Shown: piece by piece, positions 1 through 36,991 of the stretch
Numbering within the stretch: the first letter of the stretch is position 1
How the letters are laid out: every line of letters begins with the position of its first letter
NCBI GenBank assembly: GCA_040878265.1
Contig: JBBDMP010000004.1
Span: 1 to 44,317, forward strand
DNA length: 44,317 bases
Direction of reading: 5' to 3'
DNA from: Gaiellales bacterium
Lineage (GTDB): Bacteria; Actinomycetota; Thermoleophilia; Gaiellales; Gaiellaceae
The notes under the pieces: model-generated
Told to the model about the DNA's origin: nothing
What the model saw: only the letters and a program-made list of their open reading frames with translations
The model's database searches: none
Translations under genes and position numbers: made by a program

Positions 1-143
1 CGCGGGAGGACCTGTTCAACCTGCGCTTTCAGGCAGCCACGGGCGCGCTCGACAACACCGCGCGCTTGGGGCTCGTGAAGCGTGACATCGCCCGGATTCT
101 GACTGTCAAGCACGAGCGGGAAAACCAGCTGGAGCGAAGGTAG
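1..143 (+). CDS. rpmC: 50S ribosomal protein L29, C-terminal fragment (gene begins upstream of the window)
   Basis: Open from the window edge (codon phase from nt 3) to TAG 141-143. Translates to [46 protein letters not shown], an L29-type C-terminus. Sits directly upstream of S17 as in S10 operons. Confidence 0.85.
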
Positions 144-9532: not shown

Positions 9533-10489
9533 ATGGCAACGAGATCGCTGATGGAGTTCCAGATGCCGAGGATCACGCACGAGGAGGTCACGGAGGAGCG
9601 TGGCGTCTTCACGATCGAGCCCCTCGACCGTGGCTTCGGCTACACCTTCGGGAACTCGCTTCGCCGCGTGCTGCTCTCCTCGCTGGAGGGCGCGGCGGTC
9701 ACCTCGATCAAGATCGAGGGCGTGGCTCACGAGTTCACGACCCTGAAGGGCGTGCGCGAGGACGTCACGGACATCCTCCTCAACCTCAAGAACCTCATCT
9801 GCCGGCTGCACGGCGAGTCGCCCGAGATCGAGGTGCGGCTCGACAAGCGCGGCCCTGGCGGCGTGACGGCAGCCGACATCGAGGCGCCGGCCGACCTCGA
9901 GATCCTCAACCCGGACCTCGAGATCGCCAACCTCTCGGACAAGGGCCGGCTCGAGCTGACGCTGACGATCGGCCGCGGCCGGGGGTACGTGCCGGCGGAG
10001 CTGAACCGCGGGCCCGAGCACACGATCGGCGTTATCCCGATCGACTCGATCTTCTCGCCCGTGCGGCGGGTCGCGTACGAGGTCGAGGCCGCCCGCGTCG
10101 GCCAGCGCACCGACTACGACAAGCTCACGCTCGACGTCACGACGGACGGGTCGCTGTCGCCGCGCGACTCGATCGGCCAGGCGGCGGAGATCCTCATCCG
10201 CCAGCTGGCGATCTTCACCGACCTCGACCGCATCGAGGGCTTCGGCGAGGCTGCCGAGGCTGAGGCCGAAGCGCCGCAGGCCCACGGGATGGAGAACTTC
10301 CCGATCGAGGAGCTCGAGCTCGGCGTCCGGAGCTACAACTGTCTCAAGCGGGTCGGGATCGAGACGATTGGCGACCTCGTGTCGAAGACGGAGAACGAGC
10401 TTGCCGCCATCCCGAACTTCGGCAAGAAGTCGATCGAGGAAGTCAGCGAGACGCTCGCGGCGCACGGGCTGACCCTCCGCGAGGAATAG
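9533..10489 (+). CDS. rpoA: DNA-directed RNA polymerase alpha subunit
   Basis: ATG 9533; the track ORF starts at a TTG 3 nt earlier. FTIEPLDRGFGYTFGNSLRRVLLSSLEGAAVTSIKIEGV plus a C-terminal domain with ELELGVRSYNCLKRVGIETIGDL. Confidence 0.95.
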   Translation: MATRSLMEFQMPRITHEEVTEERGVFTIEPLDRGFGYTFGNSLRRVLLSSLEGAAVTSIKIEGVAHEFTTLKGVREDVTDILLNLKNLICRLHGESPEIEVRLDKRGPGGVTAADIEAPADLEILNPDLEIANLSDKGRLELTLTIGRGRGYVPAELNRGPEHTIGVIPIDSIFSPVRRVAYEVEAARVGQRTDYDKLTLDVTTDGSLSPRDSIGQAAEILIRQLAIFTDLDRIEGFGEAAEAEAEAPQAHGMENFPIEELELGVRSYNCLKRVGIETIGDLVSKTENELAAIPNFGKKSIEEVSETLAAHGLTLREE

Positions 10490-22667: not shown

Positions 22668-22847
22668 GCTGTTCCCCCTCCCTCTCCGCTGATGGTGCGC
22701 GGCAATTCTTCAGCACGGCGCCATAGGTTTCAAGGGCACGAGAGGGGCGCCGTCGCGAGACGCGAAAGAGATTTCCCTGCTCACGCGGGGAAACTAGTCA
22801 GAAGCATAGTTGCCGTGCGTCCCCTCCGTGGCCGATGATAAGTTCCA

Positions 22848-23063
22848 GTGGACGCGATCTTGCCCAGTCTCCTGAAAACCCCTTACGAGGAGCCGGAGAT
22901 CCTCGACTTCGGCTCGATTGCGGACCATACGTTCCTGCGCTGCGGGGGGACCGGCGTGAACGGCGGGGGACATACGCCTCCAAAGGACTTCCCGTATCCG
23001 CCCGCCTACCACCTCGACAAGTTCGGGGAGTGCTCAGCTCTAGCGCTGGCCGTCTCGCCCTGA
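22848..23063 (+). CDS. Putative RiPP precursor with a lasso-type leader and an atypical 42-aa core (module 1)
   Basis: GTG start; the in-frame stop TAA at 22839-22841 prevents any longer N-terminus. Residues 13-29, YEEPEILDFGSIADHTF, match the Y-x2-P-x-L-x3-G-x5-T-x lasso leader motif. They also align with the module-2 precursor leader YEKPEVKDYGDLRELTA. First gene of the exporter/B1/C/K/B2 operon. No obvious Shine-Dalgarno sequence. Confidence 0.6.
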   Translation: MDAILPSLLKTPYEEPEILDFGSIADHTFLRCGGTGVNGGGHTPPKDFPYPPAYHLDKFGECSALALAVSP

Positions 23064-24082
23064 GCGGGAGCGCTGCGCCAGGGCCGGGGGTCGACCAGCG
23101 AGAAGCTCTCGCCGAGCGCGCGGACTCCCGGGCGCCGGTCGTCGAGGTTCGTTCCGTCTTGCGGCGCTTCGGTCGTACGATCGCGCTGAACGATGTCTCC
23201 CTCGACCTCGCGGCGGGGGAGATCCATGCGCTGCTCGGTCCGAACGGGGCGGGGAAGACGACCCTACTTCGCATCCTGACGGGACTCGTGCACCCCAACG
23301 CGGGCACTGCGCGCGTCATGGGCTTCGACGCCGTCGCGAGTCCCCGAGCCCTGCGCCAGCGACTCGGGCTCGTCCCTTCGGGCGACCGTTCCTTCTACCT
23401 GCGCATCTCCGGACTCGAGAACCTGGTGTTCTTCGCGCGCCTCTACGGCATGAGGCGACGAGCAGCGGTCGCCCGCTCGAACGAGGTGCTCGAGGAGGTG
23501 GGCCTGCTCGAGGCTGCCCGCACCCGCGTCGGGCTCTACTCCCACGGAATGCAGAAGCGCCTTGCCGTCGCGCGCGCACTCTTGCCGCATCCGGCAGTGC
23601 TGGTGCTCGACGAGCCGACGCACGACCTTGATCCCCGCGCGGCGCGCGCGATCAGAGAGCTCGTCCGGGAGCTTGCCTCCTGCGGAGCCGCCGCCATCTG
23701 GGCGACGCAGCGGATCGAGGAGATCCGCGGCTTCGCGGACACCGTAACCCTTCTGCACCGCGGTGAGGTGCGCTTCAACGGCGGCGTCCCGGATCTGCTT
23801 GCCCACTCGATCCCGCGGCGCTACCTCCTCCGCGTCCGGAACGGTTCCTTCTCGGGCCGCCCGGCGGAGGCCGCCCTCAATACGGCTCTCGCCGGAGTAG
23901 GCACGATCGCCGACGCCGGCGAGAGCTCCGAGCACTATCTGCTTCAGCTCCAGCACGGTGTCATTCTCGGCGACGCGCTCAAACGCCTGACTGAGGCTAC
24001 TTTCCAGATCCTCACCTGTAGCGAGGAACGGTCGGAGCTCGAGGAGGCATTTCTTGCGCTCACGCCGGAGGGCTCCCAGTGA
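23030..24082 (+). CDS. ABC transporter ATP-binding protein
   Basis: Walker A GPNGAGKTT, signature-like SHGMQKRLAVA, Walker B VLVLDEPT. The start is uncertain. GTG 23030 is the nearest upstream canonical start before the conserved VEVRSVLRRFG strand. The track start at 22835 overlaps the precursor ORF and is unlikely. Confidence 0.85.
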   Translation: MLSSSAGRLALSGSAAPGPGVDQREALAERADSRAPVVEVRSVLRRFGRTIALNDVSLDLAAGEIHALLGPNGAGKTTLLRILTGLVHPNAGTARVMGFDAVASPRALRQRLGLVPSGDRSFYLRISGLENLVFFARLYGMRRRAAVARSNEVLEEVGLLEAARTRVGLYSHGMQKRLAVARALLPHPAVLVLDEPTHDLDPRAARAIRELVRELASCGAAAIWATQRIEEIRGFADTVTLLHRGEVRFNGGVPDLLAHSIPRRYLLRVRNGSFSGRPAEAALNTALAGVGTIADAGESSEHYLLQLQHGVILGDALKRLTEATFQILTCSEERSELEEAFLALTPEGSQ

Positions 24083-24936
24083 GCACTTTCGTCGAGCCGC
24101 TGCCCAGCCGTCTTGCGGTCCTCGTCGAGGACCTACGCAAGCTCCCGGCTTTTCTCCGCCGGGACTTCCTCGTCGCCTTGAGCTATCGGACGGCGTTCAT
24201 CTCCGACGCACTCGGTCTGTTCTTCGGCGCCTTCATCTTCTACTTCGTCGGCCTCATGGTCGATCCGACCAAGATCCCGACCTACGGAGACACCCGCGCG
24301 ACGTACATGGAGTTCGTTGCCATCGGTCTCGCGCTCGGTGTTTTCCTCCAGATCGGGCTCGGCCGGGTGGCGGCGGTCATGAACCGCGAGCAGCTCATGG
24401 GGACGCTCGAATCGCTGGTGGTCACGCCGACAGCCACCGCCACGATCCAGATCGGGTCGGTGGTCTACGACCTCATCTACATCCCGATACGGACGGCACT
24501 CTTCCTCCTCGCCATCGACGTCGGCTTCGGTCTCCACTTCCAGGCGGACGGCATTCTGCCGGCCGCCGTCATGCTTCTCTTCTTCATCCCCTTCGTGTGG
24601 GGGTTGGGCCTTGCTGCCGCGGGTGCCATGCTCACCTTCCGCCGCGGGGCGGGCGCGTTCGGACTAGGGATCGGTTTCCTGACGCTCGGATCGGGCGCAT
24701 ACTTCCCGCTCGAGCTCCTGCCCGGCTGGGTCCAGGACGTCTCCGTCGTCAACCCGATCACAGTCGCGATCGAGGGAATGCGTGAGACGCTGATCGGCGG
24801 CGTCGGCTGGTCCGGCGTCGCTACCGACCTGCTCGTGCTCGCGCCACTCTCGCTCTTCTCGCTCGTCGCCGGGGTCTTCATATTCCGGCTCGCTCAGTGG
24901 CGAGAGCGCCGTCAGGGGACCCTAGGGCTCTACTAG
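24079..24936 (+). CDS. ABC-2 type transporter permease
   Basis: 285 aa with about 6 hydrophobic segments. GTGA overlap with the ATPase stop. Confidence 0.85.
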   Translation: MSTFVEPLPSRLAVLVEDLRKLPAFLRRDFLVALSYRTAFISDALGLFFGAFIFYFVGLMVDPTKIPTYGDTRATYMEFVAIGLALGVFLQIGLGRVAAVMNREQLMGTLESLVVTPTATATIQIGSVVYDLIYIPIRTALFLLAIDVGFGLHFQADGILPAAVMLLFFIPFVWGLGLAAAGAMLTFRRGAGAFGLGIGFLTLGSGAYFPLELLPGWVQDVSVVNPITVAIEGMRETLIGGVGWSGVATDLLVLAPLSLFSLVAGVFIFRLAQWRERRQGTLGLY

Positions 24937-24940
24937 AGCG

Positions 24941-25210
24941 ATGGAGGTCACGGGCATCCAGAGGAACGGGGACGTCGCCTACCGCGAGCTCGCGTCTGGA
25001 GAGGGTGGCGTGCTGCTTCACCTCGGGACCGGCCAGTACTACGGCGTCAACCGCCTCGGCGCGGTCATCTGGAGCCTGCTCGACGGGGAGCGCACGGGGG
25101 ACGGAGTGGTCGCTGAGCTGCGGGCGCGTGTGGAAGACCCTCCACCGACGTTCATGGCGGACGTCGAGCGCTTTTTGGACGGGATGCGCCAACGTGCCCT
25201 CATCCGTTAG
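24941..25210 (+). CDS. PqqD-family protein (lasso B1 / leader-recognition element), module 1
   Basis: 89 aa. GGVLLHLGTGQYYGVNRLGAVIWSLLDGERT...VVAELRARV...FMADVERFLDGMRQRALI is a typical PqqD/RRE pattern. Confidence 0.85.
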   Translation: MEVTGIQRNGDVAYRELASGEGGVLLHLGTGQYYGVNRLGAVIWSLLDGERTGDGVVAELRARVEDPPPTFMADVERFLDGMRQRALIR

Positions 25211-25224
25211 GCAGCGGCGCCGCC

Positions 25225-27018
25225 GTGGGAGCCTTCGCCGCCGTCGCCTTCCGCTCGCGGCCTCCTGATTCAGAGGTCGTCACGCGGATGCTGGCTGCGG
25301 CCCCGCATCGGGGCGCCAGTGCGGAGGTCGTGTCGTGCGGCGACGCCGTCCTCGGCGTGAGCGGGAGTGTCGAGCTCGAGAATGCCTGGCTCGGACGGGA
25401 CAACGGCGTCGCAGCGGCGTTCGTGGGGAATCTCGACAACCGCGCCGAGCTCGCTGCTGAACTCGGCGCACCTCGGGATCACGGCCACGACGACCCTGCG
25501 AAGCTCGTGATCGCCGCGTACCGGCGGTGGGGAGAAGGCTTCCCCGCCCGGCTGCGCGGGAGCTTCAGTGGGGCCGTCGTCGACGAAAATGAGCTCGTCG
25601 CCTTCCGCGACCAGCTCGGCTTCGAGACGCTCTTCTACCGGGACGAGGAAACCGCGTTCCTCGCCGCGACGGAAGCGAAGCAGGTCGTCGCCGGAGCCGG
25701 CATTCCCCGTCGCCCCGAACTCGACGCGCTCCCGGGCATCTTCTATGGGCGTCTGCAGCCCGACCAGACGGCCCTCGAGGGCGTATACCGCTTTCCGATG
25801 GCATCGACCGCGCGAGTTGGCGCGGGGCGGCGGGCGTCCTTCCACCGTTACTGGGATCCGAGGGCGCTACTCGAGACAGCCCGGGTCTCGGACGACGAGG
25901 CACGCGAGCGGCTCGTGAAGCTGCTCGAGCGGGCGGTCGCCCGGACCGTGACGGGGAACGATGGCATCTCCCTAAGCGGCGGCGTTGATTCGCCAGCGGT
26001 GGCGGCGTTCGCCGTTTCGCCGCACATGCGGCTGGCGGGCCGGCCCCCGCTTGCCGTTTCGGCCGTCTACCCCGATCTACCGAACGTGAACGAGCTCTCG
26101 CACATCGAGGCGGTCGCGGACCTGCTCGGCCTCCCACTCCACACATACGTTCCTCATGCGAGACCGCTCGACGACGTCGCCTACTGGGTTGACGTTCTCG
26201 ACGGACCGGTCGACGTCCTCTCCGTCCCTGAGGTCGCGGAGAGCTACCGGGTGGCGCGCGCGGCGGGTGTCAGCACGGTCCTCACCGGCGAGCTCGCCGA
26301 GTACGTCTACGCGATCCGCCAGCACCTTCCCGGCCACCTGCTTCTGCACGGTCGCTGGCGGGCCTTTGCCCGCTGGGTCGACCAGGAGCGCAGCCGGGGC
26401 AGCTCTTGGCGCCGCATCGCCCGAACGCTCGCCCCCTCCGTCACCCCGTCCTTGCTCGCGACGGCGTACGTCCGCCTGCTCAAGCGCGACAACAGGCCCC
26501 TTCCCGTCTGGGTCGACCCCGCCCAAGTCGGGGGTCTCGGAAACCGGCTCGACCTGCGACGCCCGGCGCGTCGCCGGTGGAGCGAGTCGCAGCTCGACTC
26601 ATTCGGCGGCGGCGCCTCGATCAGCGTCGAGGCAGATGCGCTCTGTGCGGCGCTCTGCGGCGTGCGGGTGCGCCGGCCCCTGGCCGACATCGATCTCTGG
26701 GAGTTCTTCCTCAGCCTTCCGGCCGAGCGGAAGTTTCCCGACTCGGCGCCGAAGAGCCTCGTCCGCCAGGTCCTGCGTGGGCGGATCCCGGACACTGTGC
26801 TCGACCGGCGCGACCAGACCGTCTTCGACGACCACTACCTCGCCGCCGCCGACTATCCGGCCCTACGGCGGTGGATCCTCGACTCCGAGTACCGGCTCGA
26901 GGGAGTGGACTACAAGGTCCTCGCCGAGCGCCTGAACCGCGAGGAGATGGACGTGCACGAGCTTTCGTGGGCAAACGACCTCGCGCGGATCCACGCGTTC
27001 GTGAGCCTATGGGCGTAG
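25225..27018 (+). CDS. Asparagine-synthetase-like lasso cyclase (C), module 1
   Basis: PP-loop ISLSGGVDSPAVAAF. The N-terminus MGAFAAV lacks the glutaminase Cys2, as in lasso cyclases. 597 aa. Confidence 0.88.
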   Translation: MGAFAAVAFRSRPPDSEVVTRMLAAAPHRGASAEVVSCGDAVLGVSGSVELENAWLGRDNGVAAAFVGNLDNRAELAAELGAPRDHGHDDPAKLVIAAYRRWGEGFPARLRGSFSGAVVDENELVAFRDQLGFETLFYRDEETAFLAATEAKQVVAGAGIPRRPELDALPGIFYGRLQPDQTALEGVYRFPMASTARVGAGRRASFHRYWDPRALLETARVSDDEARERLVKLLERAVARTVTGNDGISLSGGVDSPAVAAFAVSPHMRLAGRPPLAVSAVYPDLPNVNELSHIEAVADLLGLPLHTYVPHARPLDDVAYWVDVLDGPVDVLSVPEVAESYRVARAAGVSTVLTGELAEYVYAIRQHLPGHLLLHGRWRAFARWVDQERSRGSSWRRIARTLAPSVTPSLLATAYVRLLKRDNRPLPVWVDPAQVGGLGNRLDLRRPARRRWSESQLDSFGGGASISVEADALCAALCGVRVRRPLADIDLWEFFLSLPAERKFPDSAPKSLVRQVLRGRIPDTVLDRRDQTVFDDHYLAAADYPALRRWILDSEYRLEGVDYKVLAERLNREEMDVHELSWANDLARIHAFVSLWA

Positions 27019-27923
27019 GCGGAGCGGTCAGCGGCGGAACGTGCTTCGGCTTCGAGGTCCGCTCTCCGCTTCCATTCAATTACCTTCGCGGCGGTGCCGG
27101 CGAGCCGCTCGCGATCCGGGAGCCCTCCAACGTGGCGGAGGTCACAAGGGATGACCTCGTCATCGAGTGGACGCCTACCCCGGAGCTCCCCTTCCACGCC
27201 CGGCTCTACTCGCATGAGGCCCTCTTCCGTCTCTGGATCGACGGTGCCGGGTGGTTCGAGGTCGATCCCGAGGCACGGGCGATCTCGCTGCCCGAGACGG
27301 ACAACCCGGTGCGGCGTGAGGAGCGCCTCTGGGGGATTCCGGCGATCCTCTGCTTCCTGTGGCGAGGCGACCTACCCCTCCACGCCGCCTCGGTGGAGGT
27401 CGATGGCGGCGCAATCCTCCTCTGCGCGCCGCGAACTTTCGGGAAGACCACCTTGGCCGCCGCATTCGTCCATCAGGGCTTTCGACTCCTCAGCGAGGAC
27501 GTGAGCTGTGTGCGCCTGAACGCCACGCCGAGCGTAATCCCAGGTCCTGCCATGCTGCGCCTCCGCCGGGACATAGCGGAGCGGCTGGACATTCCTCGTG
27601 CGCATCGCGTGGGAGAGCCAGACGACCGCATGCACCTCGCGCTCGACCCGGCGCAGCGGGGGAACTGCGATCCCATCCCGATCCGCGCTGTCGTCTTCCT
27701 CCGGGACGGAGACGACGAGGTCGCTCTGGAAGGTGCGCGGGCGTCTGACGCGATCCGCGATCTGTGGTCGCTCAGCTTCCGGCTCCCTTCTGACGCCGAC
27801 CGCGCTCGCTGCTTCGCCGGTGTGACAGACCTGGTAAATGCCGCGCCCGTGTGGAACCTTTCGTATCCGCGCCGCATCCACGCGTTGCGTGCCGCCGTAG
27901 AGAGAATTATCACCGATGCCTAA
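27009..27923 (+). CDS. HPr-kinase-like P-loop protein (putative precursor Ser kinase), module 1
   Basis: ATG 27009, in frame with the tail of track ORF 26406..27923. LHAASVEVDGGAILLCAPRTFGKTTLAAAFVHQGFRLLSEDVSCV mirrors the HPrK/P core H-G-x-L-V...G-x-S-G-x-G-K-S...L-x-x-D-D. Overlaps the C stop by 10 nt. Confidence 0.75.
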   Translation: MGVGGAVSGGTCFGFEVRSPLPFNYLRGGAGEPLAIREPSNVAEVTRDDLVIEWTPTPELPFHARLYSHEALFRLWIDGAGWFEVDPEARAISLPETDNPVRREERLWGIPAILCFLWRGDLPLHAASVEVDGGAILLCAPRTFGKTTLAAAFVHQGFRLLSEDVSCVRLNATPSVIPGPAMLRLRRDIAERLDIPRAHRVGEPDDRMHLALDPAQRGNCDPIPIRAVVFLRDGDDEVALEGARASDAIRDLWSLSFRLPSDADRARCFAGVTDLVNAAPVWNLSYPRRIHALRAAVERIITDA

Positions 27924-28329
27924 CGCCGCCACCCGTCCGCTTAGCCTTCCGGCGAAGGTCGAGCTCGCCCTGCGCATCTGGACGACCTTCCTCGTTGTCC
28001 AGGGCGGCATCCGCCGCCAGCCCTTGCCTGACTTCGTCGCGCAGCTGGGCGGCTCAGGACGCCAGCTGCGCGAGAGTCACTCGCCCGCGCAGCTGAGCCG
28101 GGCTGTCTACAAGAGCCTTCGGATCGGGAGTCGGCGACCGAAGTGTCTCGTCAATTCGCTTGTCCTCTTCCACTTGCTGCGGACCCAGGGCGATCCCGCC
28201 GAGCTCGTCATCGGCCTGCCCGAGGAGCCTGCCGACCACTTCGCGCATGCCTGGGTCGAAGTCGAGGGCGTCGACGTCGGTCCGCCACCGGGCCGAAACG
28301 GCCACCGCGAGCTCGCCCGCTTCCGCTGA
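27916..28329 (+). CDS. Transglutaminase-like Cys protease (lasso B2 leader peptidase), module 1
   Basis: 137 aa. PKCLVNSLVLFHLL (catalytic Cys) ... DHFAHAWVEVEGVDV (His) is a typical lasso B2 core. Confidence 0.88.
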   Translation: MPNAATRPLSLPAKVELALRIWTTFLVVQGGIRRQPLPDFVAQLGGSGRQLRESHSPAQLSRAVYKSLRIGSRRPKCLVNSLVLFHLLRTQGDPAELVIGLPEEPADHFAHAWVEVEGVDVGPPPGRNGHRELARFR

Positions 28330-29411
28330 TGACGAGCGCGAGCTACGCGGCCGAGGAGGTGTTGGGAAGCGACGACATCTGGACGGGCGTCGGGCGGGTG
28401 ATCGACCGGGCTCCCAGCCTGGCGCACCTGCGCAGGCACCGGCTTCACCTTCTCGCCGCCCACAGATGGCGCTCGCTCGGGCGGCCGCTCCCGCCCGAGC
28501 TCGCGGACGACGAGCGGCGTGCCGCCATGGCGGCACTTGCTGTGCCCATCCTGCTCGAGCGGGTGCGAGCGGGCTGCGACGATCCCGTCATCGTCTTCAA
28601 GGGCCCTGAGGTCGCGGCGCGCTATCCAAACCCCGCACTGCGCGATTTCGTCGATCTCGACATCCTCGTCCCCGATGCCGCTCAGGCGCAACGGTCTCTC
28701 ATCGAAGCCGGCTTCCGTGAGTTCGGCGATCCGGAGCTGTACGTCGACATCCATCATCTGCGCCCGCTCTTCTCGGCCCCCCTGCAGCTGCGGGTCGAGG
28801 TGCACAGCGCGCCCAAGTGGCTCGACGAGCTCGAGCCGCCGCCGGCCAGCGAGCTCTTCTCCGGGGCTGTTCCGAGCGCGACCGGCGTTGAAGGGATCCT
28901 GGCGCTCCCGCCGGCTCAGCACGCGGTCGTCCTGGCCGTGCACTCCTGGGCCCACGAGCCGCTTGCGCGCCTCGGCCACCTGGTCGACATCGCGGCGATT
29001 TTGGACGGCACCGATCGCAACGCGGCGGCCGAGATCGCAGGCGCCTGGGGCGTGCGCAGTCTCTGGGACACGACGCTCGACGTCGCCGACGCGGTCTTCC
29101 TGGGCAGGCGCGGGCGAGCGGGCGTCCTCAACGTCTGGGCGCGCCATCTCCGCGCGGCGCGCGAGCGGACGGTGTTCGAGCATCACGTCGAGCGCTGGAT
29201 GTCGGGGTTCTGGGCCCTCCCGGCGGGCAAGGCGGCCCGGCAGACGGCAGAGGAACTCTGGTGGGATATCAGGCCCACCCCGGGAGAGTCGTGGCGGCGA
29301 AAGCTCTCCCGCACGGGACGGGCCTTCCGCGACGCGTTCGTCCCGCGCTCGGAACACGACCGGGCGCTCGGCCCCGAAGCGTCCCGCCGTCGCGACCGCC
29401 CGTCCGTCTGA
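28329..29411 (+). CDS. Uncharacterised nucleotidyltransferase-family protein (type found in kinase-containing lasso clusters)
   Basis: ATG 28329 with a TGATG overlap. VIVFKGPEVAARYPNPALRDFVDLDILVPDAAQAQ carries the h-K-G...R-x-x-x-D-h-D-h-L-V polymerase-beta-like NTase motif. Confidence 0.75.
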   Translation: MTSASYAAEEVLGSDDIWTGVGRVIDRAPSLAHLRRHRLHLLAAHRWRSLGRPLPPELADDERRAAMAALAVPILLERVRAGCDDPVIVFKGPEVAARYPNPALRDFVDLDILVPDAAQAQRSLIEAGFREFGDPELYVDIHHLRPLFSAPLQLRVEVHSAPKWLDELEPPPASELFSGAVPSATGVEGILALPPAQHAVVLAVHSWAHEPLARLGHLVDIAAILDGTDRNAAAEIAGAWGVRSLWDTTLDVADAVFLGRRGRAGVLNVWARHLRAARERTVFEHHVERWMSGFWALPAGKAARQTAEELWWDIRPTPGESWRRKLSRTGRAFRDAFVPRSEHDRALGPEASRRRDRPSV

Positions 29412-29519: not shown

Positions 29520-30236
29520 GTGCAGCGGAAGCGTGAACTGATGCGATCCAAGGACCCGGGACGGGCAAGCGGCGTGGAGCCCCAGGAGCTTTCCGTTACG
29601 GTTCTCGCGGCCGACGACATCCGCGGCCGTCGCGCGGAGTCGATCCTCGCGGCGGGCGGTCTCCGCTCCAGGGGGCGGGCGGCGCGTCCGGAGGGTCTTC
29701 TCGACGACGAGCGCAGCTTGGAGATCCGGGCGATCGTCGTCGTCGCCGAGGAGTTCGATGCCGAAGTCGGGGGCTGGTTTCGCGCGCTGCGCCAAAGGCT
29801 TCCGGCCGCCGCGCTCGTCTGCGTCATTGGATCGCTCACGCCGCGCGTCGTCCGCGACGCGCTCGCGAGCGGGGCCGATGGCCTCCTCCTCGAGCAAGAC
29901 GCCGAGGCGGGTCTCGGCCCTGCCGTACGAGCGGCTTGCGCAGGCCAGATCACCCTTCCCCGCGAGCTCGGCCGGGATCTGGCCGCACCGAGGCTCTCCT
30001 CGCGCGAGAAGCAGGTCCTCGGCATGGTCGTCATGGGCTTTACGAACGGCGAGATCGCGCGAAAGCTGTACCTGGCGGAGAGTACCGTCAAGAGCCACCT
30101 CTCCTCCTCGTTCGCCAAGCTCGGCGTGCGTTCTCGCAACGAGGCGACCGCCCTCATCCTCGACCCAGAGCGTGGCCTCGGGACGGGTATCCTGGCCATC
30201 TCCGAAGGTGGGGAGCGCCTTGGGCCGGGCAGCTGA
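29520..30236 (+). CDS. LuxR-family transcriptional regulator with a degenerate receiver-like N-terminal domain
   Basis: The C-terminal part LSSREKQVLGMVVMGFTNGEIARKLYLAESTVKSHLSSSFAKLGV is a LuxR HTH. The N-terminal domain keeps LAADD. It lacks the h-h-M-D-L acceptor Asp (IVVVAEEFD) and has Glu where the conserved Lys sits (GLLLE). GTG 29520 or ATG 29541 may be the start. Confidence 0.8.
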   Translation: MQRKRELMRSKDPGRASGVEPQELSVTVLAADDIRGRRAESILAAGGLRSRGRAARPEGLLDDERSLEIRAIVVVAEEFDAEVGGWFRALRQRLPAAALVCVIGSLTPRVVRDALASGADGLLLEQDAEAGLGPAVRAACAGQITLPRELGRDLAAPRLSSREKQVLGMVVMGFTNGEIARKLYLAESTVKSHLSSSFAKLGVRSRNEATALILDPERGLGTGILAISEGGERLGPGS

Positions 30237-30276: not shown

Positions 30277-30600
30277 ATGGAGGAAGCGACCGTGCCCGGA
30301 ACCGGCGACGAATCCCTTCTTGCCGCCACCGTGCGGGTGCCCGAGCACGTCGTTTACCGCGCGTTCGTCAAGGAGACTGTCGTTCTGAACCTGCAGACCG
30401 GCAAGTATCACGGCCTCAACCCGACCGGCGGCCGGATGCTCGAGGTTCTGACCAAGGCCGAGAACATCGGCGAGGCAACGGCCAAGCTCGCCTCGGAGTA
30501 CGGTCAGCGCCAGGGCGAGATCGAGCGTGATGTGTTGGCCTTGTGCAAGGACCTGATCGAGCGCGGGCTCATCGAGCTCCATTCCGGTGCCGACCGGTAG
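30277..30600 (+). CDS. PqqD-family protein (lasso B1 / RRE), module 2
   Basis: ATG 30277 (Met174 of track ORF 29758..30600) with GGGGAGG 10 nt upstream. VVLNLQTGKYHGLNPTGGRMLEVLTKAENIGEATAKLASEY...DVLALCKDLIERGLIE is a PqqD pattern. Confidence 0.85.
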   Translation: MEEATVPGTGDESLLAATVRVPEHVVYRAFVKETVVLNLQTGKYHGLNPTGGRMLEVLTKAENIGEATAKLASEYGQRQGEIERDVLALCKDLIERGLIELHSGADR

Positions 30601-31564
30601 GCAGGCCCGGCGCACGGGGCTCAAACGCGGCTACGCGTTCGGACTCGAGCTATCGGCCCGCGTGCCCATCCCAGTCGCAGCGGCGAACGGCCGCGGCAGC
30701 GGCAGGGCGACCACGTGGGAGCTCGTCACCGACGTCGAATTGGCGTCGACGTGGAACGCGAAGGAAGCCGTCTCGCTGCTCGACCGCAGGCACCTGAGCG
30801 GCCGCCCCATGCTCGCGATCGACCACCACGAGGCGCTCGGGTACCGCCTCGCGGCTCCCGGCTTCGGGCGCCACATCGTGTCCGGCGACGGCCAGACGGT
30901 CCGGTCTGTCCTCCCGAACGTGGCGCCGTGGCGCTGGCAGCGGCTGCTCTTCGCCCAGGTCCTTCCGCTGGCTGCGAATCTCCAAGGCCTGGAAGTGCTC
31001 CACGCTAGCGCGGTGGAACTGGACGGCCACGCGCACGCTTTCGTAGCACCGGCGGGCACGGGCAAGACGTCCGTCGCCGCCCACCTCATCGCGAGCGGCG
31101 CGTCTTTCGTCACCGACGACGCCCTCGCCGTCGAGACGACCGATGCCGCAGCGCTGGTGCATTCCGGCGCGGGCGTCACGAGCATCGATCGCAGCGAGCT
31201 TCGTGCGATGACCCGGGAAGGCCGCGAGCGGTTAGGTGAGATTCTCGGGCGGAGCGACTTCAAGGTCCAGGTCGCCGTCGAGCCGGTGCCGCAGGCGCTT
31301 CCGCTCGAGCGCGTCTTCTTCCTCGAGCGCGATGCATCGGCCGAACGGGTGGAGATCGAGGAACACCGGTCGCCCGATCCCGCCCTGCTGCTCTCCAGCA
31401 CGTTCATCTGGTATCTCCGCAGTCCGCAGCGCCTGCTTCGGCACCTCGACGCCTGCGCGCGACTCGCACGCACGGCCCGCGTCTTCCACGTTCGGATCCC
31501 GGCTTCCAGCCCGGCCCGCGCGGTCGCCTCCGAGATCGAGCACCACATTCGAGGGGATCGATGA
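30587..31564 (+). CDS. HPr-kinase-like P-loop protein (putative precursor Ser kinase), module 2
   Basis: LHASAVELDGHAHAFVAPAGTGKTSVAAHLIASGASFVTDDALAV matches the HPrK/P core and the module-1 paralogue. Overlaps the B1 stop by 14 nt. Confidence 0.75.
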   Translation: MPTGRQARRTGLKRGYAFGLELSARVPIPVAAANGRGSGRATTWELVTDVELASTWNAKEAVSLLDRRHLSGRPMLAIDHHEALGYRLAAPGFGRHIVSGDGQTVRSVLPNVAPWRWQRLLFAQVLPLAANLQGLEVLHASAVELDGHAHAFVAPAGTGKTSVAAHLIASGASFVTDDALAVETTDAAALVHSGAGVTSIDRSELRAMTREGRERLGEILGRSDFKVQVAVEPVPQALPLERVFFLERDASAERVEIEEHRSPDPALLLSSTFIWYLRSPQRLLRHLDACARLARTARVFHVRIPASSPARAVASEIEHHIRGDR

Positions 31565-32019
31565 ACCGTCCCACGGCGATCAGTCCCCCGTCGGCCGCCG
31601 CACGGGAGGCGTGGAGGCGACGCTTGCCCGCGTCGCGCAAGCTCGCCCTGGCGAGGGAGATCCTGGTGACGTACCCGCGTGTGCGGTGGTGGCTCCGGCA
31701 CAAGGAGCTCCCCGCGGTGATCGCGGCACTCCGCGCGGGTGATCGTCCGGCGGAACAGCCGAACGGCGACCAGATTCTGATGGGCATCCGGCTCGGCCGT
31801 GTCGTCCGGCGGACGCTCGGTGTGCTGCCCGCCGACTCGCGCTGCCTCGTGCGCTCGCTCGTCCTGACGTCGCTGCTCGCGCAGCGCGGCATCGACTCGA
31901 AGCTCGTGATCGGTGTGAAGGCGGAGCACAGCTTCGAGGCGCACGCTTGGGTCGAGTGCGCCGGAGTCCCCCTGTTGCCCCCCGGCGAGGAGGACTACGG
32001 GCGGCTCGTGGAGTTGTGA
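31561..32019 (+). CDS. Transglutaminase-like Cys protease (lasso B2), module 2
   Basis: ATGA overlap with the kinase gene. SRCLVRSLVLTSLL ... FEAHAWVECAGVPL provides the Cys/His core. Confidence 0.88.
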   Translation: MNRPTAISPPSAAAREAWRRRLPASRKLALAREILVTYPRVRWWLRHKELPAVIAALRAGDRPAEQPNGDQILMGIRLGRVVRRTLGVLPADSRCLVRSLVLTSLLAQRGIDSKLVIGVKAEHSFEAHAWVECAGVPLLPPGEEDYGRLVEL

Positions 32020-33947
32020 TGGCCGTCGGAACCGCCGTCTATCCCGTACTTGCAGGCGTCTTCGACCCGACGGCGACCTTCGACTTCGACGGGTCGCGCG
32101 CCGTGCTGGGCGGCGTTCTCGAGCGCGAAGGAGACGGCGACGCCGTCGCGGCGGGGCAACTCGCCGCCGTCCGTACGCCTGCACGGGGCCGCCGTACCTC
32201 GGACGAGCGGTTCCTTTGCCTGCTCGCCGGCCGCATCTACAACCTGGGCGAGCTCGCCGGGTCGAGTCGAGCCGAAGACCCCGAGGTGGTCCTGGCGAGA
32301 CTCTGGGGGGAGCGCGGAGACGCTTTCCTCGGACAGCTTTCGGGTTCGTTCGCGTTCGCGCTGTGGGACCGGGAGGAGCGGCGCGGCGTGATCGTGCAGG
32401 ATCAGGTCGCCGCCAGGTCGGTCTATTACTGCACGTCTGGATCTCGCCTCTTCTTCGCCTCCGACATCCGTCCGCTGCTCGCGGTGCTGCCGACACGCCC
32501 GGCCCCGGATACCGTCTCGGTCGTCCACTGGCTCGCCAACAGCCCGCCCCCGGGGCAGCGGACGATGTACGAGGGCATCGAGCGTCTCGGACCGGGCTAC
32601 ATGCTCGAGTTGCGCGACGGACGATGGGCACGACGTCGCTACTGGGAGCCGCGGTACCGGACGCCTGTCCGCCGTTCGCATGGCGAAGTGAGCGAGGAGC
32701 TCTGGACGGTCGTGTCCAAGGCGGTAGGTGCGCGGCTGGCCGCCGGCGGCTCGATCGGCATCGTCATGAGCGGCGGTGTCGACTCTTCGACCGTTGCGAC
32801 CGCGGCGATGGAGGCGCGCAACGGGCTTCCGGCGCCGCGCGGCTACTCGGCGGTCTTCCCGGACGAGCCGAAGATGGACGAGTCCCTCCGGATCCAGGCG
32901 CTCGCCGAGGGGATCGGCCTGCCGAGCACTCAGATGGAGGTCGAGCCCGGCGGCCTCGTGGCGCTCCTGCTCGAGTACGTCGCCCGCTGGGACCTTCCGC
33001 TGTCCGGGCCCGGCTATCTGCTCGAGCAACCGTTGCTCGCGCGCGCGGCTGCAGACGGGGTCGACGCTCTTCTCGACGGGCAGGGCGGCGACGAGGCGTT
33101 CGGCCACGCGCCCTACCTCCTGGCGGACCGGATCCGCCACGGCAGGCTGATCTCGAGCATCCGGCTGGCGCGCCGCTTCCCGCTCGTCTTCGAACGAACG
33201 CCGTGGAAGGTCTCGCTGCAGATCTGGAAGCTGTTCGGCCTGAAGGGAGCGGTCCCGTACGGGATCCACAACGCGGTTCGCGCGCGCCGCGGCGCGGAGC
33301 ACCACGCGCCGAAGCTGCTTACGGGGGAGAGCGGACGCCTCTATTTCGAGTCGGACGACCCCTGGGCCTGGAAGGCCGTGGAGAGCGGTCCGTTGTGGTG
33401 GCGCTACAAGCTGAGCACGCTGACGAAGATTCGCGAAGACGTGGGGCTCGGCGAGTACCTCCGGCACCGGGCGGCGATGGCCGGGCTGGAGGCGCGGCCG
33501 CCGCTGCTCGATCTCGACCTGGTGGAGTTCGCGCTCGGCGTCCCTCCCGCCCTCGAGTTCGATCAAGCCGCCGACCGGCCCCTGATCCGTGAGGGCATGC
33601 GCGGGCGCGCTCCCGACTATGTGAGGCTCTGGCGGGAGAAGAGCAACCTCGGGCCGTTCTACCACGAGACGCTCTCGGGCCATGATCTCGAAGTCATTCG
33701 CGACGTGCTCGGAGCGGAGGACGCCGAGATTCGCGCCTTCGTCCGTCCCGAGATCATTCGTGACCTCGTCGAGCAGGTCCCGCGGGTCGGAGAGCCCGGC
33801 TGGCTGAAGTGGGGGACGACGCTGTTCTGCCTATTCAGCGGCGAGTGCTGGCTTCGCCAGCAATCCGATCCCTCGTTCGCGCAGCGCCTGCGCGAGACGG
33901 CCGACCTCACGAGGCCTCGAGCTCGCGTGCACCACGCTCCGGTATGA
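32019..33947 (+). CDS. Asparagine-synthetase-like lasso cyclase (C), module 2
   Basis: ATG 32019 overlaps the B2 TGA (GTGATGG). PP-loop IVMSGGVDSSTVATAA is present, with no N-terminal Cys2. 642 aa. Confidence 0.88.
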   Translation: MAVGTAVYPVLAGVFDPTATFDFDGSRAVLGGVLEREGDGDAVAAGQLAAVRTPARGRRTSDERFLCLLAGRIYNLGELAGSSRAEDPEVVLARLWGERGDAFLGQLSGSFAFALWDREERRGVIVQDQVAARSVYYCTSGSRLFFASDIRPLLAVLPTRPAPDTVSVVHWLANSPPPGQRTMYEGIERLGPGYMLELRDGRWARRRYWEPRYRTPVRRSHGEVSEELWTVVSKAVGARLAAGGSIGIVMSGGVDSSTVATAAMEARNGLPAPRGYSAVFPDEPKMDESLRIQALAEGIGLPSTQMEVEPGGLVALLLEYVARWDLPLSGPGYLLEQPLLARAAADGVDALLDGQGGDEAFGHAPYLLADRIRHGRLISSIRLARRFPLVFERTPWKVSLQIWKLFGLKGAVPYGIHNAVRARRGAEHHAPKLLTGESGRLYFESDDPWAWKAVESGPLWWRYKLSTLTKIREDVGLGEYLRHRAAMAGLEARPPLLDLDLVEFALGVPPALEFDQAADRPLIREGMRGRAPDYVRLWREKSNLGPFYHETLSGHDLEVIRDVLGAEDAEIRAFVRPEIIRDLVEQVPRVGEPGWLKWGTTLFCLFSGECWLRQQSDPSFAQRLRETADLTRPRARVHHAPV

Positions 33948-33991
33948 GCCCTGAGGACATCCGACCTTTCTCGTACCGACCTTTTTCCGCC

Positions 33992-34020
33992 TTGTCTTCG
34001 CGCTGCACCGCGAGTAGCCT
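33992..34020 (+). promoter_or_regulatory. Candidate sigma-70-type promoter for the module-2 precursor
   Basis: TTGTCT (33992-33997), a 17-nt spacer, then TAGCCT (34015-34020, TANNNT form). It lies in the relatively AT-richer 107-nt gap after the cyclase gene, about 35 nt upstream of the precursor ATG. Confidence 0.35.
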
Positions 34021-34055
34021 CGATCGGGAAGGAAACTGCGACCAAGGAGACTTCG

Positions 34056-34208
34056 ATGGAAGAGCGCAAGGACGTAGCGCCCGCGTACGAGAAGCCGGAG
34101 GTCAAGGACTATGGCGATCTGCGCGAGCTGACTGCGACTCAGGCGACGGGGACGCAGACGGACGTGCCGAAGGGAACCCCGGTTCCGCCGTTCACGATCT
34201 TCTCGTAG
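34056..34208 (+). CDS. Lasso peptide precursor (50 aa; below the ORF-track cutoff), module 2
   Basis: Translated by hand from ATG 34056, which has AAGGAG 6 nt upstream. Sequence: MEERKDVAPAYEKPEVKDYGDLRELTA-TQATGTQTDVPKGTPVPPFTIFS. The leader matches Y-x2-P-x-L-x3-G-x5-T-x. The core has Asp at position 9 and a C-terminal Ser. A strong terminator follows. Confidence 0.85.
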   Translation: MEERKDVAPAYEKPEVKDYGDLRELTATQATGTQTDVPKGTPVPPFTIFS

Positions 34209-34230
34209 CCGTCGGTCGCCAAGCGATTCT

Positions 34231-34264
34231 CGAGACCCGGCCTGCGAGCCGGGTCTCGCGTTTT
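34231..34264 (+). terminator. Rho-independent terminator after the module-2 precursor
   Basis: 11-bp perfect stem CGAGACCCGGC/GCCGGGTCTCG with loop CTGCGA, followed by GCGTTTT. Confidence 0.8.
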
Positions 34265-34331
34265 CCGGCTCTACCAGTCTGTTCGTCTCGAGGTCATACT
34301 GGAAGGTAGGAGCTTTGGCTCCGAGTGCTCG

Positions 34332-35132
34332 ATGGGCGGCGACGACCTCACGTTGAAAGTCTGGCGGCTCCACCCGAACGGGTGCCGCATCATCCCGGCC
34401 GAGAGGACGCTCCAGGGCACGGCGAATCGAGATGCCCTCCGCTGGTGCGGCCCCTTCACGCATGCGAATGCAGCAGGCTGGTGGCTGTACCCCCCGGTCG
34501 ACGTCGACATCGTCTGGCGGGGTGGCCGCGAGTTCGAGCACACGCAGCTGTCGCCGTACGATGACGCCGACAGTCACCTCATCCGCTTCCTCGCAGAGGG
34601 AATGGATGGTGTGACACCCGGAGAGTGGCTGCCGCCGGGAGGCCGGACGAAGTTCAGCTGGGGCCTGGTCGAGGAGGGGGTCGTCCAGATCTGGACCGGC
34701 TGCATCTTCCAGATGCCACCCGGATGGGGGCTGCATCTGCGGAGTCCGATCAACTTTCCGCCCGCAGCGTTCCACGTAATGGAGGCGATCATCGAGGCGG
34801 ACTGGCTGCAGTACGACATCTGGCTGAACCTCGCGTTCGACCGGCCGAACGAACCGGTACAGATCCGGAGGGACGGCCCGCACCCGATCGCCCAGCTCGT
34901 GCCCGTCACGCCCTCGAGCTACGACCGAGCCTGGCAGCTCGACAGCGAGCTCGTGAATCGCAACACTCCGGAGGCCAGCCGCGTCTTCGAATACTTCGTC
35001 GAGTACAACCAGAAGAAGTTTGCGAGCGGCGGGAAGCAGCTGCGGTCGCTCGAGGACCCCGCGCAGCGCAAGGACTCGGCGACCTACCACCGTGAGCGCA
35101 AGCGCCGTCGAGCCGAGGTCCGGGGCGAGTGA
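34332..35132 (+). CDS. Uncharacterised protein, paralogue A (no family assigned with confidence)
   Basis: 266 aa with high GC3. Shares the blocks C-x-P-x3-AN-x-AGW-x-L...W-x-GG, PPGW-x-L...P-x-N-x-P and E-x-DW with the ORF at 36158..36991. Translationally coupled (GTGA) to the GNAT gene. Confidence 0.7.
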   Translation: MGGDDLTLKVWRLHPNGCRIIPAERTLQGTANRDALRWCGPFTHANAAGWWLYPPVDVDIVWRGGREFEHTQLSPYDDADSHLIRFLAEGMDGVTPGEWLPPGGRTKFSWGLVEEGVVQIWTGCIFQMPPGWGLHLRSPINFPPAAFHVMEAIIEADWLQYDIWLNLAFDRPNEPVQIRRDGPHPIAQLVPVTPSSYDRAWQLDSELVNRNTPEASRVFEYFVEYNQKKFASGGKQLRSLEDPAQRKDSATYHRERKRRRAEVRGE

Positions 35133-36148
35133 CGCCGATCCGGCCGGCACGCGACGAGGACGCGGCGAGCGTCGCCGCCCTCGTGAACGAGATCACCGCC
35201 GACTGGTTCGCCTGGGCGCCGATCACCGCGGATGACCTGCTCGACCGGTGGCGCTCACCTCGAGTCGACCGGCAGGACTTCGTCGTCGCCGAAGGCTCGA
35301 TCCTCGGCTATGCCTCGGTGACCGCGGCGGACCCGGGACGGACGCGCCTCTGGGCCGAGCTCCGGGCCATTTCCGGCGAGGACGAGAGCCGCGTCTCCGC
35401 GAGCCTCCTCGCCGCGATCGAGGCTCGGGCACGAGAGCTGGCCGCTCGGGCTGATCCGGGGGCGCGCGTCGTGCTCCGCACGCAGGTTGCCGAGGTGCAG
35501 GCGCAGCTGGGGCGGCTGCTCGCCGAAGCCGGTTACGCGGTCGTGCGCCACGCCGAAAACGCCGTCCGGTCGCTCGAGCCGCCGCCGCCCCCGCCCTCGT
35601 GGCCGCCGGGGATAACTCCTCGCCGCTTCCGGACGGGCGAGGAGCGGACGATCTGGGAGCTGGCGATGGACGCGCTCGCGAGCAGCTGGGACTTCGTGCG
35701 CGAGCCCTTTCCCTCCTGGCTAGCGTCGCAAGTCGAGAGCCCCGCTTTCGACCCGGAGCTCTGGTTTGTCGCCGAGCGCGACGGCGACATCGCCGGCGTT
35801 CTCTACTGCCGCAACCATCCGTCCGATCCGGAGGTCGCCTGGCTCGACGTCCTCGCCGTCCGCCCTGAATGGCGGCGACGGCGGCTCGGCACCGCGCTCA
35901 CGCAGGAGGCGCTACGCGAGTTCCATCGGCGGGGCAAACGCCGGGCCGGGGTCGGTATCGATCCCGACAACCCCACCGGAGTTGCCCGGTTGCTGGCAAA
36001 GCTCGACTTCGAGATCGTTCAGCGCTTCTCGACCTTCGAGAAGGAGCTCCGGCCCGGGCGGCCCGCAGCCCGGCTGCTCGGACGTTCCGCCCGAAACGCC
36101 GGGCAGGCCTGGCGGCGCCTCGTTTCGGGAGCGACCCGAGCGCACTAG
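35129..36148 (+). CDS. Tandem-GNAT N-acetyltransferase (MshD-like two-domain architecture)
   Basis: The C-terminal GNAT has acetyl-CoA motif A, LDVLAVRPEWRRRRLGTALTQEAL. The N-terminal half (IRPARDEDAASVAALVNEI...) is a second, more degenerate GNAT fold. 339 aa. Confidence 0.8.
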   Translation: MTPIRPARDEDAASVAALVNEITADWFAWAPITADDLLDRWRSPRVDRQDFVVAEGSILGYASVTAADPGRTRLWAELRAISGEDESRVSASLLAAIEARARELAARADPGARVVLRTQVAEVQAQLGRLLAEAGYAVVRHAENAVRSLEPPPPPPSWPPGITPRRFRTGEERTIWELAMDALASSWDFVREPFPSWLASQVESPAFDPELWFVAERDGDIAGVLYCRNHPSDPEVAWLDVLAVRPEWRRRRLGTALTQEALREFHRRGKRRAGVGIDPDNPTGVARLLAKLDFEIVQRFSTFEKELRPGRPAARLLGRSARNAGQAWRRLVSGATRAH

Positions 36149-36157
36149 ACTCGGACA

Positions 36158-36991
36158 ATGGCGCCGAACCGGAAGAAAAAGAGCCCCTCCCAGCCCGTTG
36201 CAGCGCCGCAGGAGGCCGAAACGCTCCAGCTCGTGGCCCTGCACGTCTCGCCTCCGCCCGAGGCGATCGTCGAGCCTGCTCCACGGTGGCGGGACTGGAT
36301 CAACGAGATGGACGAGCGCTGGGCGAACCGCTGCCTGCCCCTGCTCGTTGCGAACGAGGCCGGCTGGGTCCTGCGCACCCCGTACGCCTTCGAGGCGATC
36401 TGGGACGGCGGGGCGGCTGCGGAGGCCGTCGACGTCGTCTTCGACGACGCGTCCGTTCCGACCCCCAAGCCTGTCGAGAGCCATTTCGGCTACGGGATCC
36501 TCACCTGGGTCGTCCCCTACCTCTTCCGGACCCCGCCCGGCTGGAATCTGCTCGCCCGTGGCCCTGCCAACTGGCCCAAGGACGGCATCTGCGCGCTCGA
36601 GGGCCTCGTGGAGACCGACTGGTCGGTCGCGACGTTCACGATGAACTGGAAGCTGACGAGGCCGGGACACCCCGTTCGCTTCGAGGCGGGCGAGCCGTAC
36701 TGCATGATCGTCCCGCAGCGCCGCGGCAACCTCGAGCTCTTCCGCCCCGTCTACCGCGACTTCGAGCGAGAACCCGAGATGCGTAAGGGGACGAAGGCCT
36801 GGTCGGAAAGTCGCCACGATGCGCAGGTGCGGAAGTTCTTGGCCGCGTATTCGCGCGAGTACGAGGGCGAGCGGAGCTCGTGGGAGAGCCATTACTTCCG
36901 GGGTACGGCTCCCGACGGAACCGCCGCGCCCGCTCATCAGACGCACATCCGTCTCGCTCCCTTCGAGCGCGAGACGGAGGCGACCAGCTAG
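36158..36991 (+). CDS. Uncharacterised protein, paralogue B
   Basis: 277 aa, with the same conserved blocks as 34332..35132 (NRCLPLLVANEAGWVL...IWDGG; RTPPGWNLLARGPANWP; LVETDW). The stop overlaps the stop of the convergent methyltransferase gene by 4 nt (CTAG). Confidence 0.7.
   Translation: MAPNRKKKSPSQPVAAPQEAETLQLVALHVSPPPEAIVEPAPRWRDWINEMDERWANRCLPLLVANEAGWVLRTPYAFEAIWDGGAAAEAVDVVFDDASVPTPKPVESHFGYGILTWVVPYLFRTPPGWNLLARGPANWPKDGICALEGLVETDWSVATFTMNWKLTRPGHPVRFEAGEPYCMIVPQRRGNLELFRPVYRDFEREPEMRKGTKAWSESRHDAQVRKFLAAYSREYEGERSSWESHYFRGTAPDGTAAPAHQTHIRLAPFERETEATS

Follow-up and report, generated by a model that had tools for sequence, protein, structure and literature searches.

The stretch of DNA analysed here (the window, 44,317 nucleotides) carries on its forward strand a set of lasso-type biosynthesis genes that ends with a gene for a short precursor peptide. 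The regulator, the enzymes and the precursor are arranged as follows:

29520-30236, + strand: LuxR/GerE-type regulator, upstream of B1
30277-30600, + strand: B1, PqqD-like leader-recognition protein (Pfam PqqD, E 6e-14; start codon chosen)
30587-31564, + strand: HPrK-like kinase (K), with Walker A GTGKT at residue 157 and FVTDD at residue 177
31561-32019, + strand: B2, transglutaminase-like leader peptidase (NF033537, Transglut_core3; Cys95, His128)
32019-33947, + strand: C, Asn-synthetase-like lasso cyclase (Pfam Asn_synthase, E 1e-38; SGGVDS at residue 251)
34044-34049, + strand: Shine-Dalgarno sequence AAGGAG, read in the sequence, 6 nucleotides 5' of the ATG
34056-34208, + strand: precursor (A) gene, 50 codons, product MEERKDVAPAYEKPEVKDYGDLRELTATQATGTQTDVPKGTPVPPFTIFS, stop codon at 34206-34208
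34056-34136, + strand: leader peptide, residues 1-27 (MEERKDVAPAYEKPEVKDYGDLRELTA), delimited by alignment and NF033521
34137-34205, + strand: core peptide, 23 residues (TQATGTQTDVPKGTPVPPFTIFS), with Thr1 at 34137-34139, Asp9 at 34161-34163 and Ser23 at 34203-34205

An earlier reading of the locus, made from the sequence only and referred to below as the sequence-only reading, had proposed a 50-residue ORF from the ATG at 34056 preceded by AAGGAG. The translation obtained here is identical to the one given then, and the Shine-Dalgarno sequence was located where expected; GGAG or AGGAGG also precedes the start codons of homologous precursors. The gene starts 108 nucleotides after C on the same strand, so that the adjacent B1 (RRE), B2 peptidase and ATP-dependent cyclase C expected of a lasso locus are found directly upstream of it. 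The NCBIfam lasso PqqD models match B1 under their cut-offs, B2 reaches 70.8 bits against NF033537 (cut-off 33), and C matches NF033535 with an E of 7.5e-50, but far below the cut-off of that model (170 vs 525). A second lasso-type module (C, B2, NTP_transf_5 and ABC transporter; module 1, the precursor belonging to module 2) lies at 22835-29411. It includes a second precursor-like ORF at 22842-23063 (+ strand), which has a lasso-type leader (YEEPEILDFGSIADHTF) and a core without Asp or Glu at positions 7-9, and which overlaps the 5' part of a long ABC ORF in another frame.

To place the cluster among its relatives, one genome per species was scanned with the leader; this gave 80 loci, all from Solirubrobacterales, Thermoleophilia or 'Actinomycetes' MAGs. 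With the window's proteins as tblastn queries, nearly all 80 showed the order ABC-ABC-B1-(K-B2 or B2-K)-C-A, and B1-K-B2-C-A or B1-B2-K-C-A was also found on metagenome contigs. The sequence-only reading had remarked that the precursor is the last gene rather than the first. The position is as described, but it is no oddity: about 80 related genomes share this gene order, and precursor-last is therefore normal for the clade. Closest to the window are L005 and three JGI contigs, L085 among them, which combine the order B1-K-B2-C-A with a core of the DVPxG type. No lasso gene occurs within 10 kb of the near-identical precursors at L001-L003 (10001-10156 in L001) and L087 (10001-10138), which resemble orphan or distal copies of the precursor.

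Most other loci encode a nearly identical leader (..DYGDLQELTA) joined to a core of the form ACLGG(S/T)GGD..., which has a C-terminal Cys and Pro as its last residue. This sister family, with ACLGG(S/T)GGD...GPSNPAAGCKSNP cores, comprises about 73 Solirubrobacterales loci (L008, L010-L084 except L009; genes near 10001-10190). It resembles the window in its leader, which is nearly the same, in its promoter box, in the position-9 Asp register (Ala1-Asp9 in ACLGG cores) and in its gene set (ABC, ABC, B1, B2, K, C, A, LuxR). In contrast to the window's core, ACLGG cores contain Cys2 and a C-terminal Cys, which could possibly form a disulfide, and end in Pro instead of Ser. Their loci also differ in their neighbours: DUF6065 is absent from them, and no NTP_transf_5 orthologue was found in them.

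A search of 5.8 billion proteins with the precursor returned 84 homologous peptides of about 50 residues (53-92% identity, best E 5e-23), nearly all from soil or sediment metagenomes and none of them named. In the alignment of 85, residues Y11, P14, D18, G20, L25, T26, D36 and P38 are invariant, and G32, V37, G40, T41, P44, F46, F49 and S50 are nearly so. NF033521, the curated NCBIfam model 'lasso RiPP family leader peptide-containing protein' (lasso_leader_L3), covers only the leader; it matches residues 11-27 of the precursor (model positions 1-17) with 22.7 bits against a cut-off of 19, and was the only NCBIfam precursor model to match. The lasso leader motif YxxPxLx3Gx5Tx is recognizable in the same region, with Y11, P14, V16, G20 and T26-A27 present and T26 penultimate in the leader. 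The proposal that the ORF encodes a lasso precursor is thus borne out by a leader motif conserved in 85 homologues, by the NF033521 match, and by B1, the HPrK-like kinase, B2 and C directly upstream. The precursor is a member of an uncharacterised lasso family of uncultured soil actinobacteria, and the system is of a known kind.

Two described systems allow a closer comparison. Paeninodin from Paenibacillus dendritiformis and pseudomycoidin from Bacillus pseudomycoides are, like the peptide of the window, encoded with a split B1/B2, an Asn-synthetase-like cyclase and an HPrK-like kinase. Their rings, Ala1-Asp9 in paeninodin and Ala1-Glu9 in pseudomycoidin (PMC6993621, PMC8498205), are nine-residue rings closed on Asp/Glu9, as predicted for the window's core. 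In both, the C-terminal Ser is the phosphorylation site, and the window's core also ends in Ser; the nucleotidyltransferase PsmN encoded near pseudomycoidin likewise has a parallel in an uncharacterised nucleotidyltransferase of the window. The window differs from both systems in its host, a Thermoleophilia-like actinobacterium and not a member of Bacillota, and in having Thr rather than Ala as residue 1. Its precursor gene comes last, behind a box-bearing promoter of its own, and clusters of its type have a LuxR-type regulator and DUF6065 as constant partners. Finally, the window's kinase matches HPrK models weakly, and the window's core is not expected to resemble theirs in sequence. With this locus, the range of kinase-associated lasso peptides would reach past Bacillota and Proteobacteria.

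The C-terminal Ser of paeninodin and of pseudomycoidin receives its phosphate from an HPrK homologue. With paeninodin this occurs on the linear peptide, while with pseudomycoidin phosphorylation is followed by addition of a hexose by PsmN; the DD pair is essential in the pseudomycoidin kinase PsmK (PMC8498205, PMC6993621). The last residue of the window's precursor is Ser50 (core Ser23). Cores of the DVPxG type carry a terminal Ser in 71 of 82 cases and are exactly 23 residues long in 63 of the 82. Together with the Walker A and FVTDD motifs kept by the kinase, the frequency of the terminal Ser fits the earlier suggestion that this residue suits an HPrK-like kinase as substrate. An orthologue of the kinase is present in nearly all related loci. 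Against Pfam Hpr_kinase_C, however, the kinase scores 20.5 bits, under the gathering score of 33.3, and HprK-related NCBIfam models match it weakly (E ~1e-4). Searches of PDB sequences with the kinase and with DUF6065 found no relative. ACLGG-type sister clusters retain the kinase, yet 66 of their 73 cores end in Pro, and the kinase clade is therefore not strictly dependent on a terminal Ser. Given the weak HPrK match and these clusters that have the kinase and lack the terminal Ser, we regard phosphorylation of Ser23 by the HPrK-like kinase as a reasonable inference and not as a demonstration.

Further genes lie on either side of the cluster:

28143-29411, + strand: NTP_transf_5 nucleotidyltransferase (Pfam E 2.7e-22), at the end of module 1; the true start of the gene is probably near 28330
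34332-35132, + strand: DUF6065 protein, neighbour of the DVPxG-type precursor
35129-36148, + strand: GNAT protein, between the two DUF6065 genes
36158-36991, + strand: second DUF6065 protein (paralogue), downstream of the GNAT gene

Orthologues of the NTP_transf_5 protein, 45-48% identical, adjoin DVPxG-type precursors in L004, L005 and L085, and genes assigned to NTP_transf_5 by Pfam annotation only also flank precursors on two JGI contigs. This placement beside Ser-terminated precursors in relatives suggests that the nucleotidyltransferase at the end of module 1 may serve the Ser-terminated peptide of module 2. DUF6065 flanks the precursor in the window, L005, L007, L085, L086 and two JGI contigs. 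Its AF2 model (pLDDT 94.7) has a beta-barrel core resembling trimeric dUTPases, with Foldseek E values of 6e-5 to 1e-3 and a TM score of 0.36 by query length. The GNAT protein was considered as an acetylase of Lys12, a role that found no support: it is missing from related loci, and it resembles two-domain MshD-type enzymes weakly.

We consider it likely that the gene at 34056-34208 encodes the precursor (A) of a split-B lasso cluster from an uncultured Thermoleophilia/Solirubrobacterales-like actinobacterium, matured along the following lines and expressed from its own promoter. B1 (PqqD-like) would bind the leader motif YxxPxVxDYGxLxELT, and B2 would cut after Thr26-Ala27. C would then close a nine-residue macrolactam between the alpha-amine of Thr28 (core Thr1) and the Asp36 (core Asp9) side chain. 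The 14-residue tail VPKGTPVPPFTIFS is predicted to thread this ring and is probably held there by Phe19 and Phe22, the candidate plugs named in the sequence-only reading, each of which is conserved in 77 of 85 homologues. Phosphorylation of Ser23 by the HPrK-like kinase would probably take place on the linear precursor, as with PadeK and PsmK, and the NTP_transf_5 enzyme and DUF6065 proteins may tailor the peptide further. At the level of expression, the precursor's own promoter (-35 at 33992-33997, -10 at 34015-34020) would drive its transcription, with the T-rich box abutting that promoter as the most likely site of the cluster's LuxR-type activator. The hairpin at 34231-34258 would end or attenuate transcription, resulting in a short, abundant message.

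The points that run against the lasso and kinase reading are the weak kinase match, the low cyclase score, the orphan precursors, and the ACLGG clusters with a kinase and no terminal Ser. Some of these bear on the possibility that lasso-type enzymes process the peptide to a product that is branched-cyclic and unthreaded, or that is remodelled by DUF6065 and NTP_transf_5. A cyclase scoring far below the curated lasso-cyclase level is consistent with such a product, as are the DUF6065 genes flanking the DVPxG core type, a tail that is unusually conserved and Pro-rich, and the neighbouring module, whose precursor core breaks the lasso rules. The core of the window, on the other hand, has all the sequence features of a lasso peptide (Thr(-2), Asp9, a 14-residue tail and two conserved Phe), and its ring size and terminal Ser equal those of paeninodin and pseudomycoidin. 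A product of this non-classical kind is unlikely, and we retain the threaded peptide with a nine-residue ring.

The sequences around the precursor gene were analysed for the expression signals proposed earlier. The following elements were found:

33961-33973, + strand: distal copy of the T-rich box, CCGACCTTTCTCG, read in the sequence
33974-33991, + strand: proximal box, TACCGACCTTTTTCCGCC, which abuts the -35 hexamer; candidate activator site (family consensus CTAGTACGTTTTTCCACC)
33992-33997, + strand: -35 hexamer TTGTCT, its TTG invariant in 77 aligned sites
34015-34020, + strand: -10 hexamer TAGCCT (TAnnnT type), with a 17-nucleotide spacer from the -35
34231-34264, + strand: terminator or attenuator hairpin (11-bp stem, 6-nucleotide loop, CG, TTTT)

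The TTGTCT-17-TAGCCT pair is thus present where the sequence-only reading had placed it. Both hexamers are weak sigma-70 matches, and a generic consensus scanner called neither a promoter nor a terminator at the precursor; because of this negative result, the signals were judged against relatives. Of 85 distinct regions preceding related precursor genes, 78 have the arrangement TTGnnn-16..18-TAnnnT, compared with 1.6% of control regions (190-nucleotide windows drawn at random from these loci). Immediately upstream of the -35, the relatives share a conserved box, TACGTTTTTCCACC, sometimes with a second copy about 15-17 nucleotides further upstream (L001, L004, L007, L012, L013, L029, L040, L041, L045, L050, L076 and L085). 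The window carries both copies. With a matrix for the box plus -35 built from 77 other loci, the window being left out, positions 33974-33997 score 20.8 bits, and the next best site on both strands of the 44 kb scores 1.0. With a matrix for the box only, 94 matches fall in the 200 nucleotides before precursor genes, and the remainder of the 3.18 Mb contains 25. Across the family, the T-rich box abuts the precursor -35 in about 78 genomes (loci L004-L085).

Homologues of the LuxR-type regulator, with identities of 48-71% over 41-181 residues, occur in 80 of the related loci, and this protein is a candidate binder of the box. In ACLGG-type clusters the regulator gene is found downstream of A; clusters of the DVPxG type have it upstream of the ABC genes. 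Together, the data point to a precursor promoter that is dedicated, conserved and probably activator-dependent. The conserved box and the co-conserved LuxR regulator are possible handles to activate silent clusters. Five loci have strong extra copies of the box on the opposite strand, about 6.4 kb upstream of the precursor (minus strand; L012 3588, L013 3649, L041 3594, L044 3551 and L047 909), which may mark a divergent promoter of the same regulon.

Downstream of the stop codon, the hairpin described earlier as an 11-bp stem followed by a T-tract was found at 34231-34264, its T-tract consisting of only 4 T. The arms are CGAGACCCGGC (34231-34241) and GCCGGGTCTCG (34248-34258), separated by the 6-nucleotide loop, and TTTT is at 34261-34264. 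Its folding energy corresponds to an MFE z of -3.1, and 0 of 200 shuffled sequences fold as well. In the related loci, z for the 80 nucleotides that follow the stop codon averages -2.9 and is below -2 in 56 of 85; control segments taken from within the C gene average 0.06, and 4 of 85 have z < -2. The post-stop hairpin is a family feature, and L001 carries one of 13 bp. The stems in the window (34233-34240), L001 and L006 share AGACCCGG, so that sequence is kept beyond mere structure. The earlier claim that the precursor has its own expression signals is strengthened by this conservation of promoter architecture and post-stop hairpins across 85 related loci, and it is the comparative evidence that makes both signals credible.

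It could also be that the precursor has no independent promoter and is co-transcribed with B1-K-B2-C, the box having another function such as RNA processing or repressor binding. The precursor gene is indeed co-oriented with C and begins just 108 nucleotides after it, both hexamers match the sigma-70 consensus poorly, and the scanner found nothing. Yet the TTG and TAnnnT elements keep a spacing of 16-18 nucleotides in 78 of 85 divergent loci while the sequence of the spacer is free, and fixed spacing combined with free spacer sequence is the signature of a promoter and not of an RNA element. Moreover, the orphan precursor in L001, far from any C gene, keeps the architecture of box, -35 and -10. 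Co-transcription as the sole source of the message is accordingly quite unlikely, and transcription from the precursor's own promoter is the reading that we prefer.

Cleavage after Thr26-Ala27 had been proposed from the leader motif. T26 is invariant in the 85-homologue alignment, which places cleavage after residue 27 and makes Thr28 the first residue of the core. Counted from there, Asp36 (core Asp9) is the sole acidic residue in the core and is invariant, and it supplies the Asp or Glu at position 7, 8 or 9 that is the rule for lasso cores. The register was compared over 155 distinct cores, which comprise both core types and metagenome peptides and were counted from the residue after Thr(-2)-x. 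An acidic residue (Asp or Glu) is at position 9 in 153 of them, at position 7 in 1 and at position 8 in 0; Gly5 is present in 144. With T26 invariant and position 9 acidic in 153 of 155 cores, the ring register Thr1-Asp9 with cleavage after Ala27, favoured by the sequence-only reading as well, is well supported. For an uncharacterised lasso family of uncultured soil Thermoleophilia, both the precursor and its ring are thereby assigned with good support.

The same precursor could in principle be cleaved after Thr28-Gln29, an alternative raised earlier that would give a seven-residue ring from Ala1 (Ala30) to Asp7 (Asp36). Thr28-Gln29-Ala30 resembles a Thr(-2) site, Ala is common as residue 1 of lasso peptides, and seven-residue rings exist. 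The invariant Thr, however, is T26, whereas Thr28 is variable: position 28 in the 85 homologues is T in 52, A in 17, G in 4, S, Q and V in 3 each, I in 2 and R in 1 (T, A, G or S in 76 of 85), and Ala is found there in the wider family. An acidic position 7 in the family register is seen in just the one core of 155. Position 30 is occupied by 16 residue types in the 85 homologues, with Pro in 13, and in a large-scale survey Pro was the sole residue never found at lasso core position 1 (PMC13632552). A core starting at Ala30 therefore fails, and the Ala1-Asp7 ring is effectively excluded in favour of Thr1-Asp9.

The sequence-only reading had further described Thr as uncommon at position 1. For lasso peptides generally this stands, and to our knowledge no characterised lasso peptide has Thr at core position 1; within the precursor family, by contrast, Thr1 is the majority residue (49 of 82 cores). 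The occasional Q, V, I or R at this position suggests that the cyclase may be tolerant of the residue there, and Thr as the usual ring-forming N-terminus of a family bears on cyclase tolerance at position 1. Taking these features together, it is possible, though doubtful, that the clusters constitute a distinct actinobacterial lasso subclass. Such a subclass would have a cyclase that naturally accepts the beta-branched Thr1 (occasionally Gln, Val, Ile or Arg), a phosphorylated C-terminal Ser extended by NTP_transf_5, a dUTPase-like DUF6065 acting in tailoring or immunity, and a LuxR-type activator at the TACGTTTTTCC box.

Comparison of the precursor with three relatives for which DNA was at hand gave pN/pS values of 0.16-0.49 at a pS of ~0.45, and the GC3 of the ORF is 0.84; 34056-34208 is a real gene under purifying selection. 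That the ORF arose by chance in GC-rich intergenic DNA, as its mere 50 codons and the longer spurious ORFs overlapping it on both strands might suggest, is refuted by the 84 homologues, the purifying selection, the kept synteny and the match to a curated model, and the overlapping 439-residue minus-strand ORF has no Pfam match.

DNA runs containing the stretch come only from soil and sediment metagenomes, and no RNA-seq run was found to contain it. No Rfam family matches within 33800-34450. None of the sources searched gives a name for the core family, (T/A)xxxGxxTDVPxGTPVPPFSIFS, and literature searches by DUF6065, Solirubrobacter, Thr1, and core and leader strings found no description of the precursor family. 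The exact 50-residue protein is recorded without a name in the gene-call collection for the source contig; the PGAP model NF033521 would supply one for the precursor.
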